Shown here in pieces: positions 44,001 to 47,000 of a DNA stretch of 64,000 nucleotides; position 1 is the stretch's first letter; each line of letters starts with the position of its first letter. The stretch comes from Escherichia coli. GTDB lineage: Bacteria; Pseudomonadota; Gammaproteobacteria; Enterobacterales; Enterobacteriaceae. The stretch lies in NCBI RefSeq assembly GCF_041248615.1, contig NZ_CP158426.1; one strand, given 5' to 3'. The position numbers were made by a program.

Positions 44001-47000
44001 TTTCGCGATTATTTAAACTACCTCAGCATGGGACCACCGTCCGCACAGAATTGATTGCGGGGATGACCACTTTTTTAACCATGGTGTACATCGTTTTTGT
44101 GAACCCGCAAATCCTCGGCGCGGCACAAATGGACCCGAAAGTGGTGTTTGTTACCACCTGTTTGATTGCCGGTATCGGCAGTATTGCGATGGGGATATTT
44201 GCTAACTTACCCGTGGCGCTGGCTCCGGCAATGGGGCTGAACGCCTTCTTTGCGTTCGTGGTCGTGGGGGCGATGGGTATCTCCTGGCAGACCGGGATGG
44301 GCGCGATATTCTGGGGCGCAATTGGGCTATTTTTGCTCACGCTATTTCGTATCCGTTACTGGATGATCTCCAACATTCCATTAAGTTTACGTATTGGTAT
44401 CACCAGCGGAATCGGATTATTTATCGCCTTAATGGGATTAAAAAATACTGGCGTTATTGTCGCCAATAAAGACACCCTGGTGATGATTGGCGATTTAAGT
44501 TCTCACGGCGTGTTGTTAGGTATTTTAGGGTTTTTTATTATAACCGTGTTGTCATCACGTCATTTTCATGCCGCGGTGCTTGTTTCTATTGTGGTGACGT
44601 CTTGCTGTGGATTATTTTTCGGTGATGTTCATTTTAGCGGCATCTATTCCATTCCGCCTGATATTAGCGGCGTCATTGGTGAAGTAGATTTGAGCGGCGC
44701 GTTAACACTTGAACTCGCCGGTATCATTTTCTCCTTTATGCTGATCAACCTATTTGATTCATCAGGAACATTAATTGGTGTAACTGATAAAGCTGGCTTA
44801 ATAGATAGTAACGGTCAATTCCCCAATATGAATAAGGCGCTGTATGTTGATAGCGTCAGTTCGGTGGCAGGCGCATTTATTGGTACCTCATCTGTTACTG
44901 CCTATATTGAAAGTACTTCTGGTGTGGCGGTCGGTGGTCGCACGGGGCTGACTGCGGTTGTGGTCGGCGTTATGTTCCTGTTGGTTATGTTCTTCTCACC
45001 GCTGGTGGCGATGGTTCCTCCTTACGCAACCGCCGGAGCGTTAATCTTTGTTGGCGTGCTGATGACCTCAAGTCTGGCGCGCGTTAACTGGGATGATTTT
45101 ACCGAATCGGTGCCTGCGTTTATTACCACGGTGATGATGCCCTTTACTTTCTCGATCACCGAAGGGATTGCACTCGGCTTTATGTCGTACTGCATCATGA
45201 AAGTGTGCACCGGGCGCTGGCGCGATCTGAACCTGTGTGTGGTGGTGGTCGCAGCTCTGTTTGCACTGAAGATTATTCTGGTGGATTAGTAACTGGCGAG
45301 GGTTTCCAGATATCATGAGTTCTGATTACGCAGGAGAACTCATGATCTGGATAATGCTCGCCACGCTGGCGGTAGTGTTTGTGATTGGTTTTCGGGTGCT
45401 GACATCCGGGGCCAGAAAAGCGATTCGCCGTCTCAGCGATCGGCTGAATATCGATGTCGTACCCGTGGAGTCGATGGTCGATCAAATGGGAAAGTCAGCC
45501 GGTGACGAATTTTTACGTTATTTGCATCGTCCGGATGAGTCGCACCTGCAAAACGCCGCGCAGGTGCTGCTCATCTGGCAAATTGTCATTGTCGATGGTA
45601 GCGAACAGAACCTGCTGCAATGGCATCGGATTTTACAAAAAGCCCGCCTTGCCGCTCCCATTACTGATGCTCAGGTCAGGCTGGCGCTGGGTTTTCTGCG
45701 CGAAACCGAACCTGAAATGCAGGATATTAATGCTTTTCAGATGCGCTATAACGCGTTCTTTCAGCCTGCCGAGGGCGTTCACTGGCTGCATTAAAACCGC
45801 TTCGTCTTATCAGCCTACAGACCGCGCCTGGCCTGTAGGGTGGATAAGGCGTTCACGCCGCATCCGGTATCGGAACTGACAGTAGGTGAACGCATTATCT
45901 ACGTTCTATTTACAGCAGCACCTCCAACCCGTGTTTTTGCACAATGCTGAGCAGTTTTAATGAAATGCCATTGGGGCGTTTAGCGCCACTTTCCCATTTT
46001 TGTACAGTTGAAACGCTGGTATTGAGATAGTGAGCGAAGACGGGCTGACTCACTTTTAATTTTTCCCGCAGTGCTTTTATCTCAACAGGTTGTAAGTCTT
46101 GCACGCTGGTCAGGCAGGCTTTGTCAAAAGTACGCATCGTTTCGGCAGAAATAGCATTGACGCTGGACAATCCAGCCGCTGCGCTGTGAATAGCCTCAAA
46201 TGCAGGACTTTTAAATTTAGTTTTTGCAGTCATAGCAGATCTCTGTCAGTTCTTTAGTGTTAATCATTGCTGTCAGTTGGGCTTTCGTCAGGAAGGCATA
46301 ATGCTTTGCAAGTTCACGAAAACCAGCCAGTTCCTGACTATTGATGTTCGACATATCCTGTTTTGCATATAAAAACGTGTAAAACCAATTGCTTCCCCCT
46401 TTTGCCAGAATAATTGCACGCTCACGATTTTGGTGAAGGCGCTTTTTAAAAACGCCACCACCAAGTGCATCAGCTTTACCTTGTTCCGTTTCTAAAATGG
46501 CCCGGCACAACTCTTCATCTGTTATTGCATGAGACCTGGCTTCCCTTGCAAACCATTTGGTTTTAAACACGCGCATATCGTTGAGATCCTGTTATTAAAG
46601 TATATCACCAAGTGCAATACTTTATCCCTTGTTCCCAACACAATCGCGAAAATACATATCACCTTGCCCTATGATTTTTATTTCTTCGAGCAGCCTCGAA
46701 CTTTCCCACAACACCGTAAAAGTTGCAAAAACGTTAAATGCGTCACACATTTCAATGTTAAAGTGGTCGGCTTTTCCCCTGAAACATGCCACGGGTAACA
46801 CCATGAGTGAATTTATTGCCGAAAACCGCGGCGCGGATGTCATCACCCGACCGAACTGGTCAGCCGTTTTCTCGGTGGCGTTTTGCGTCGCCTGTCTGAT
46901 TATCGTTGAGTTTTTGCCCGTCAGTTTGTTGACGCCAATGGCCCAGGATTTAGGCATTTCGGAGGGGGTTGCCGGGCAATCGGTGACCGTGACCGCCTTT

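Follow-up and report, generated by a model that had tools for sequence, protein, structure and literature searches.

A HigB-2/HigA-2-type toxin-antitoxin operon between yicN and nepI in Escherichia coli, most likely lost from K-12

The yicN-nepI locus

The window analysed here, a 64-kb stretch of E. coli DNA, corresponds to positions 1-64000 of NZ_OW967178.1. Between yicN (45342-45794) and nepI (46803-47987), both on the plus strand, lie two overlapping genes on the minus strand, antisense to their neighbours. The upstream gene (46217-46576) is an ORF of 119 amino acids encoding a HigB-2/ToxP-like toxin (Pfam PF06296) and the downstream gene (45910-46233) is an ORF of 107 amino acids encoding the antitoxin. 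The 3' end of the toxin gene overlaps the 5' end of the antitoxin gene by 17 bp (46217-46233, minus strand), an arrangement that presumably couples their translation; the identical overlap is found in homologous modules of Citrobacter, Legionella, Methylosinus and Xanthobacter. The initial annotation had described two ORFs of these lengths with this overlap, antisense to yicN and nepI and adjoining a REP element, and the ORF coordinates agree with that description. RefSeq (NZ_OW967178.1) labels the toxin 'type II toxin-antitoxin system RelE/ParE family toxin' and the antitoxin 'helix-turn-helix domain-containing protein'; the pair is thus already annotated as a toxin-antitoxin system and is nothing categorically new. 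Literature searches with the RefSeq accessions, the gene name yicN and the O157 Sakai locus tags ECs4597/ECs4598 turned up no work on the pair. PGAP gives the toxin 117 residues, starting at GTG 46570, whereas the initial annotation began it at ATG 46576; the latter is favoured because all toxin homologues open with MRVFKT.

The REP-type palindromic element (about 45800-45868) separates the convergent 3' ends of yicN and the antitoxin gene. It forms a stable hairpin (z = -3.6), gives a sub-threshold match to naRNA4 (REP-derived) and has a second, diverged copy at 6118-6141. Alignment shows that the element at 45800-45868 is also present in K-12, and it therefore lies outside the indel described below.

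Upstream of the toxin gene there is a single inverted repeat (46596-46624, minus strand; 13-nt arms, 85% complementary), presumed to be the operator for an antitoxin dimer. Its core at 46601-46619 reads TATTGCAC-TTG-GTGATATA, against TATAGCAC-N3-GTGCTATA as the consensus of other genera. The repeat has no other good copy within the window, and across five genera no other block of the intergenic region next to the toxin gene is strongly conserved; in Dickeya, one of the five, the repeat is conserved although the module sits at another locus. Inside the right arm of the operator a putative extended -10 element, TGATATACT (46599-46607, minus strand), can be read from the sequence: the 8-N3-8 repeat spans TGnTATACT, and GTG(C/A)TATA(C/T/G)TT is conserved between genera. 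Since a strict consensus promoter scan reported no promoter, this element is put forward as a candidate. The footprinted operator of Vibrio cholerae HigA-2 (VcHigA2) also spans 19 bp and lies over the -10 box (PMC11006873), and the putative E. coli operator matches it in both span and placement. A likely ribosome-binding site, AGGA, is found at 46587-46590. A terminator scan gave one terminator-like hairpin, located inside the toxin gene; shuffled controls give as many.

Family, fold and active site of the toxin and antitoxin

The toxin matches PF06296 with E = 9.8e-42 (142 bits), residues 1-113 aligning with model positions 1-120; V. cholerae HigB-2 (VcHigB2) itself matches the same model with E = 3.3e-8 over positions 8-96. 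PF06296 is the sole domain found in a Pfam search at E <= 10, with no match to PF05973 (Gp49), PF05015 or PF09907. Profile searches thus place the pair in the HigB-2/HigA-2 family, in keeping with the earlier proposal of a RelE/ParE-superfamily toxin and an XRE-HTH antitoxin of the Hig kind; of the 'HigBA/Gp49-type' label, the toxin-first gene order holds and the Gp49 assignment does not. No NCBIfam or PADLOC model matches the toxin, and against the PADLOC-DB defence-system models the antitoxin gives only generic HTH matches. In PHROGs the toxin has a single weak match of unassigned function. A phage origin finds no support, the sole match in the phage collection being a mis-filed Salmonella chromosome contig.

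The AF2 model of the toxin (pLDDT 89.9, pTM 0.84) predicts a RelE-type fold with VcHigB2 as the nearest structure; in a Foldseek search of the PDB, ranks 1-11 are all VcHigB2 chains (TM 0.49-0.63). Neither phmmer with the toxin nor a 36-sequence family profile finds anything in the PDB at E <= 1, and because these direct searches are empty, the link to HigB2 is drawn through Pfam, hhalign and the predicted fold. Hhalign pairs K44, R46, R53, Y70 and K72 of the toxin with K49, R51, R64, Y82 and K84 of VcHigB2 in what is a weak alignment (E = 1e-3, probability 20%). Alanine mutants of R51, R64, Y82 and K84 reduce VcHigB2 activity 170- to 3000-fold (PMC5416850). K44, R46, R53 and K72 are invariant in 21 of 21 modules from Gamma-, Alpha- and Deltaproteobacteria; position 70, tyrosine here, is Tyr or Phe across the family. 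Two features set the toxin apart from VcHigB2. A C-terminal helix and strand (residues 98-115), which contain a Glu112 invariant across the family, are absent from VcHigB2, and the β2-β3 loop is about six residues shorter than that of VcHigB2, in which replacing the loop with three alanines costs 120-fold in activity (PMC5416850).

The antitoxin matches HTH_3 with E = 1.2e-7. Among solved structures V. cholerae HigA-2 is its closest match (E = 8e-10, residues 46-102), and it is 55% identical to Coxiella AntitoxP over residues 5-106. The C-terminal XRE-HTH domain (about residues 46-102) would, on this homology, dimerize and bind DNA. The conserved N-terminal segment (about residues 1-45) is presumed to be the part that neutralizes the toxin; it has no detectable similarity to that of VcHigA2, and in an AF2 model of a linker-fused toxin-antitoxin its residues 7-40 are predicted to form two helices (pLDDT > 90). 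Assignment of the antitoxin to the MqsA/NadS family was rejected: TIGR03830 and NF041265 score 41.0 and 41.3 bits against curated cut-offs of 61.8 and 60, and the HTH part alone aligns.

Distribution and history of the module

The module is present in 1716 of 5426 complete E. coli genomes (31.6%), O157:H7 and O25b:H4 included; each has exactly one copy, always chromosomal and in no case on a plasmid, and every copy sampled from the carriers is annotated intact. Within Escherichia the toxin has a dN/dS of 0.08-0.14 and the antitoxin one of 0.07-0.11, and both genes are under purifying selection.

K-12 is without the pair, as had been supposed. An 842-bp segment (45866-46707) is there replaced by about 44 bp, and the yicN-nepI intergenic region is accordingly 210 bp in K-12 as against 1008 bp here; all sampled module-less genomes share an identical 903-bp empty allele. 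The replacement sequence contains a remnant of the toxin gene: 17 of 19 nucleotides match 46474-46492 (minus strand; codons 29-35), in the correct place and orientation relative to that gene. The local alignment score of 28 is reached by 1 of 500 shuffles of the K-12 piece (mean 17.6), and 74 other 842-bp segments of the window, scored as a control, have a mean of 15.6 and a maximum of 21. In each of three Escherichia alleles the match falls in the same place. No target-site duplication, terminal repeat or recombinase was found at the indel junctions in E. coli.

The same nepI-proximal, divergent site is occupied in Escherichia sp. E1V33 and Salmonella, in Citrobacter koseri, C. freundii and C. 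amalonaticus, and in Klebsiella indica, K. michiganensis and K. aerogenes. Between genera dS exceeds 2 (saturated) for the module and is 1.2-2.4 for nepI and yicN; saturation like that of the flanking genes argues against recent exchange between these genera. Taken together, the shared nepI site, the saturated dS and the K-12 remnant indicate that the K-12 state is most likely a deletion of the module. The initial annotation had read the pair as an accessory insertion and proposed comparing the yicN-nepI junction across genomes. Accessory it is, given its presence in under a third of genomes, but the comparison, with the module at the nepI-proximal site in Citrobacter, Klebsiella and Salmonella, did not bear out the direction of the event.

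Elsewhere the family behaves differently. The 119- plus 107-residue module occupies unrelated loci in Edwardsiella, Erwinia, Enterobacter, Pectobacterium and Dickeya; homology between these genera is limited to about 740 bp with no recombinase gene inside, and dS between different bacterial families is only 0.2-0.8. Relatives are found on 183 plasmids, and several genera have broken toxin genes next to intact antitoxins. The module tree does not track the species tree cleanly, with C. koseri nearer the mobile clade, and the Escherichia toxin is on a long branch (identity to other Enterobacterales is about 71%, whereas those average 84% among themselves).

Proposed function and comparison with known systems

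We regard the locus as probably a chromosomal type II operon of the HigB-2/HigA-2 (PF06296, ToxP/AntitoxP) kind that is long resident and was lost by K-12. The pair is most likely a working module, consisting of a ribosome-dependent mRNA nuclease, a neutralizing repressor and an autoregulated promoter, because of the family and active-site match, the likeness to AntitoxP, the conserved repeat and the purifying selection. A single promoter region, with the inverted repeat over the extended -10, would drive a bicistronic message, toxin then antitoxin. By homology, the toxin would enter the ribosomal A site and cut translating mRNA through K44, R46, R53, Y70 and K72, stopping translation; the N-terminal segment of the antitoxin would fold onto the toxin and block it, and the XRE-HTH dimer, with or without toxin, would bind the inverted repeat and repress the operon. 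If the labile antitoxin were lost or made in too small an amount, the toxin would be freed. The comparative data suggest that in Enterobacteriaceae the module has long occupied the intergenic region upstream of nepI and that deletion has removed it from about two thirds of E. coli, K-12 among them.

Two other accounts concern the history of the locus. Some E. coli lineages could have gained the module horizontally, as a cassette entering between yicN and nepI, in which case K-12 would show the ancestral empty site; the mobility of the family (unrelated loci in five genera, homology confined to the module, low interfamily dS, plasmid copies) and the patchy presence in E. coli would fit this. 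Such an event is nevertheless improbable: in Escherichia sp. E1V33, Citrobacter, Klebsiella and Salmonella alike the module lies at this position, divergent from nepI, its dS between genera is saturated as in the flanking genes, the 44-bp site of K-12 keeps the correctly oriented match to codons 29-35, and the E. coli junctions are devoid of recombinase, target-site duplication or terminal repeat. There is a still smaller chance that the locus is a decaying or domesticated remnant, with an inactive toxin and an antitoxin retained only to regulate transcription or to counter addiction to plasmid-borne relatives. The long branch of the Escherichia toxin, the broken toxins beside intact antitoxins in several genera and the two thirds of E. 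coli that manage without the module could be read in this way, but the toxin has a dN/dS as low as that of the antitoxin and is full length with its catalytic residues complete, and the sampled carriers are annotated intact.

The activity of the toxin admits a further alternative. A RelE fold is no guarantee of mRNase activity, since SehA inhibits RNase III (PMC12817084) and ParE targets DNA gyrase (PMC11980606), and the toxin could likewise have the fold while acting on another target. SehA is HigB-like, has no RNase activity and depends on residues in an additional helix at its C terminus (PMC12817084); the present toxin has a C-terminal extension with an invariant E112 that VcHigB2 does not possess, and many family members have Phe rather than Tyr at position 70. 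We think this unlikely, because SehA falls in another family, together with K-12 HigB, and has an antitoxin of 142 residues, the four basic active-site residues of VcHigB2 are invariant in this toxin family, and ToxP, which has the same C-terminal extension, blocks cell-free translation.

For the field, the preferred reading of a long-resident operon lost by K-12 changes little: it adds one more predicted HigBA-2/ToxP-type module in pathogenic E. coli (O157:H7, ST131) that K-12 lacks. The toxin could, however, serve as a convenient example, amenable to genetics, of the form that most PF06296 members take, in which the loop is short and the C terminus is extended; there is no solved structure of this form. 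The family has two lifestyles, being syntenic and vertically inherited over the long term in Enterobacteriaceae and a moving cassette of about 740 bp in other Enterobacterales, and the module is a modest natural example in which to study the persistence and loss of chromosomal toxin-antitoxin systems. Its divergent pairing with the purine-nucleoside efflux gene nepI is retained across four genera under purifying selection, and there is a slim chance that the module is not simply selfish but has been co-opted. If so, the C-terminal extension with Glu112 could alter toxin neutralization or target, and the repressor could couple nepI expression, and hence nucleoside export, to translation stress.

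Among known systems the closest solved fold is that of V. cholerae HigB-2/HigA-2 (VCA0468/VCA0469; PDB: 5JA8, 5JAA, 8A0X), of the same PF06296. The two modules share toxin-first order, aligned active-site residues, an antitoxin with an N-terminal neutralizing segment (presumed here) and a homologous C-terminal XRE-HTH, and a single 19-bp inverted-repeat operator overlapping the -10 box (putative here). They differ in that toxin identity is about 20%, the loop is HQNRE here and ASKGKGKRGGS in VcHigB2, the helix and strand of residues 98-115 are missing from VcHigB2, and the operator of VcHigA2 is 7-N5-7 rather than 8-N3-8 and differs in sequence too; the V. cholerae module lies in the superintegron, the present one in a fixed position of the core genome. 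Of the relatives studied by experiment, ToxP/AntitoxP of Coxiella burnetii (CBUA0028/CBUA0027, plasmid QpH1) is the closest; it too is a toxin-first overlapping operon. Identity extends over the full length of both proteins, at 55% for the antitoxin (N-terminal segment included) and 31% for the toxin (C-terminal extension included). ToxP is toxic and inhibits translation in vitro, AntitoxP neutralizes it, and the promoter of the operon is bound by the pair (PMC10098735); what the tests on ToxP showed was inhibition of translation, not mRNA cleavage itself. Unlike the E. coli module, ToxP/AntitoxP is plasmid-borne with a role in plasmid maintenance, and ToxP keeps a long Lys/Gly-rich β2-β3 loop. 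K-12 HigB/HigA (YgjN/YgjM) and Salmonella SehA/SehB are likewise toxin-first type II systems with a RelE-superfamily toxin and an HTH antitoxin, but their antitoxins (138-142 residues) have a different architecture, their toxin folds match weakly (TM about 0.3) and their toxins are PF09907 in the mBio family table (PMC11980606). SehA/SehB was considered as an orthologue, in view of the RNase III-inhibiting mechanism of SehA, and set aside as a different family because SehB is related to K-12 HigA and SehA to K-12 HigB. MqsR/MqsA also has the toxin first, and the antitoxin HTH resembles the C-terminal domain of MqsA (PF15731, E = 1.2e-5); in the MqsA models the match is confined to the C-terminal HTH, and the toxin is not MqsR.

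The gene pair between yicN and nepI and its putative toxin

Two genes lie on the minus strand between yicN (45342-45794, plus strand) and nepI (46803-47987, plus strand); as the initial annotation described, they encode a toxin of 119 aa (46217-46576) and an antitoxin of 107 aa (45910-46233) and overlap by 17 bp. RefSeq labels the products 'type II toxin-antitoxin system RelE/ParE family toxin' and 'helix-turn-helix domain-containing protein', and RefSeq/PGAP starts the toxin at GTG 46570 (117 aa). ATG 46576 (119 aa) is the better start, since the N-terminus MRVFKT is found in all toxin homologues and the ATG is kept in the cross-genus DNA alignment. 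The pair is ordinary: its toxin-antitoxin family is known and already annotated, and the pair itself is uncharacterised.

The REP-type palindrome reported beside the pair (~45800-45868) is located where the 3' ends of yicN and the antitoxin gene converge; the same element is found in K-12 and is therefore outside the variable segment. The REP element downstream of yicN (45838-45903) gives a sub-threshold Rfam naRNA4 match (32.9 bits against a gathering score of 59.5), and its core has a diverged second copy at 6118-6141. The adenine permease gene beside yicN (adeP/adeQ) is intact in the window (43955-45289) and annotated as a pseudogene in O157:H7 Sakai (ECs_4600; 4714-6047 of the homologous locus L066). 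Just downstream of nepI, a 3709-aa ORF of ~100-aa tandem Ig-like repeats (48188-59317; RefSeq feature end listed as 56698) carries the annotation iatC (inverse autotransporter adhesin); yicS holds the counterpart position in K-12.

HMM searches assign the toxin to PF06296, the only Pfam family found, with a match that spans the full model (E 9.8e-42); NCBIfam and PADLOC gave no match. V. cholerae HigB-2 (VcHigB2) is assigned to the same family (PMC11980606), in agreement with the proposed Hig-type toxin of the RelE/ParE superfamily, and its PDB 5JA9 sequence matches PF06296 at model positions 8-96 only (E 3.3e-8). Direct sequence searches of the PDB with the toxin found no match. A 36-sequence toxin family profile aligns weakly with VcHigB2 (E 1e-3), and this weak alignment equates toxin K44, R46, R53, Y70 and K72 with VcHigB2 K49, R51, R64, Y82 and K84. 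Mutation of R51, R64, Y82 and K84 of VcHigB2 to alanine lowers activity 170- to 3000-fold (PMC5416850). Across 21 modules drawn from three classes of Proteobacteria, K44, R46, R53 and K72 do not vary.

The AlphaFold2 model of the toxin (pLDDT 89.9) has a RelE-type arrangement, and VcHigB2 chains take the first 11 places among its PDB matches (TM 0.49-0.63), followed by S. pneumoniae HigB, Cami1, E. coli HigB and RelE. Compared with VcHigB2, the toxin has a short β2–β3 loop (HQNRE, against ASKGKGKRGGS) and carries an additional helix and strand at its C-terminus (residues 98-115), in which Glu112 is invariant; both features are the majority form of the PF06296 family. Residues 98-115, a region within the PF06296 model, also hold a conserved 'EIC' motif beside Glu112. 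VcHigB2 is the only solved PF06296 member, and the C-terminal helix/β-strand is missing there.

The antitoxin, the putative operator region and selection

Residues 46-102 of the antitoxin are an XRE helix-turn-helix domain, and the solved structure most closely related to it is that of V. cholerae HigA-2 (VcHigA2, E 8e-10). The N-terminal 45 residues have no detected similarity to VcHigA2 and are strongly conserved within the family. In a linker-fused AF2 model, residues 7-40 are two confident predicted helices, consistent with a folded neutralising segment. Assignment to MqsA or NadS was rejected, the matches being limited to the HTH domain and below curated cut-offs.

A single inverted repeat, TAAAGTATTGCAC-TTG-GTGATATACTTTA (minus strand, 46596-46624), is found 20 to 48 nt upstream of the toxin ATG. 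Its right arm holds TGATATACT, a putative extended -10 element, downstream of which AGGA stands 10 nt before the ATG. In an alignment of upstream regions from E. coli, C. koseri, C. freundii, Salmonella and Dickeya, toxin-side conservation is confined to the inverted-repeat block (consensus TATAGCAC-N3-GTGCTATA) and the ribosome-binding site; the block is kept in Dickeya, where the module occupies another locus. There is no second good copy within the 64-kb window. The VcHigA2 operator is likewise a single inverted repeat, of 19 bp, across the -10 box (PMC11006873). Since a strict promoter scan reported no promoter, the toxin-gene promoter is one that we infer.

Against the alleles of Escherichia sp. 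E1V33 and E. coli E69, the window allele has dN/dS values of 0.08-0.14 (toxin) and 0.07-0.11 (antitoxin), and both proteins are under maintenance; module dS (0.13-0.28) is similar to or below that of nepI and yicN (0.27-0.42).

Distribution and history of the module

Of 5426 complete E. coli genomes, 1716 carry the module, always in single copy on the chromosome and never on a plasmid; O157:H7 (Sakai: ECs4597/ECs4598) and O25b:H4 are among them. The E. coli HS-02 copy (H76, NZ_CP172818.1) has 78.5% DNA identity, the other 1715 having 95-99%, and may be an introgressed or mis-assigned allele. K-12 lacks the module, as initially stated, and has ~44 bp in place of 842 bp (45866-46707); the module-less genomes sampled all share an identical 903-bp allele.

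The initial annotation read this difference as an accessory insertion. The frequency in E. coli bears out 'accessory', but 'insertion' probably gives the history in the wrong direction. The 44-bp filler of K-12 contains CTTTGCCCTGTTCCGTTTC, which agrees with toxin codons 29-35 (46474-46492) at 17 of 19 positions and runs in the same orientation; in three Escherichia alleles the match falls on the same codons. The match scores 28, a value reached by 1 of 500 shufflings of the K-12 piece (mean 17.6); other segments of the window, each 842 bp long, score 15.6 on average and 21 at most. The module stands divergently upstream of nepI, usually beside yicN, in Escherichia sp. E1V33, Citrobacter koseri, C. 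freundii, C. amalonaticus, Klebsiella indica, K. michiganensis, K. aerogenes and Salmonella. Between these genera module dS is saturated (>2; flanks 1.2-2.4), and amino-acid identities of 79-84% (antitoxin) and 69-72% (toxin) are close to or lower than the yicN (71-87%) and nepI (81-91%) values, which fits long co-residence rather than recent transfer. Because of the shared nepI site, the saturated dS and the toxin-codon remnant, we consider the empty site of K-12 likely to be a deletion, and put it no higher because the trees of module and species agree only approximately. This evolutionary direction is the one substantive correction to the initial annotation.

Outside the nepI-site genera, the PF06296 module family is mobile. 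The 119 + 107-aa module occupies unrelated loci in Edwardsiella, Erwinia, Enterobacter, Pectobacterium, Dickeya, Serratia and Yersinia, with homology between these genera confined to ~740 bp (~72 nt before the ATG to ~3 nt after the stop) and dS of only 0.2-0.8 between different bacterial families; more distant relatives are on 183 plasmids. In L018, L019, L020, L023, L029 and L010 (~3930-4670 of each locus) it is a sharply bounded cassette of promoter/operator and two genes, with 86-95% nucleotide identity between families and no recombinase gene within the shared segment. The cassette flanks were compared by BLAST with E. coli NepI, YicN and AdeQ only; flanking sequence is common to some copies (Erwinia psidii, Enterobacter sp. 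10-1, RIT693, Serratia oryzae). A toxin-antitoxin module is expected to decay by losing its toxin first. The toxin frame is truncated or partial in Mixta (L027), Lonsdalea (L039), Pantoea formicae (L040), Winslowiella (L057), Brenneria (L055) and Pectobacterium polonicum (L056), and a full-length antitoxin homologue is still detectable in most of these six genomes.

Proposed function and comparison with known systems

A functional type II toxin-antitoxin system is the best-supported reading of the module, whose architecture, family membership, conserved catalytic residues, conserved putative operator and purifying selection are established at the level of sequence. The toxin would act as a ribosome-dependent mRNA endonuclease and be neutralised by the N-terminal segment of the antitoxin, an antitoxin HTH dimer would repress the operon at the single operator, and the 17-bp overlap may couple translation of the two proteins; toxicity, mRNA target, neutralisation and DNA binding are what we infer for the pair. 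The reading is weakened chiefly by the low similarity to VcHigB2, the one relative with a solved structure, by the shorter loop and by a C-terminal extension that is uncharacterised. SehA, a RelE-fold toxin of another family, inhibits RNase III and does not cut mRNA (PMC12817084), a precedent that calls for caution over the endonuclease reading. Candidate roles include a stress response, stabilisation of the genome, anti-addiction and defence against phages.

The closest tested system is ToxP/AntitoxP of Coxiella burnetii, to which the antitoxin is 55% identical as a whole and the toxin 31% identical along its full length. ToxP is toxic, in E. coli among others, stops cell-free translation, and is bound and neutralised by AntitoxP, which, alone or complexed with ToxP, binds the promoter of the pair (PMC10098735).
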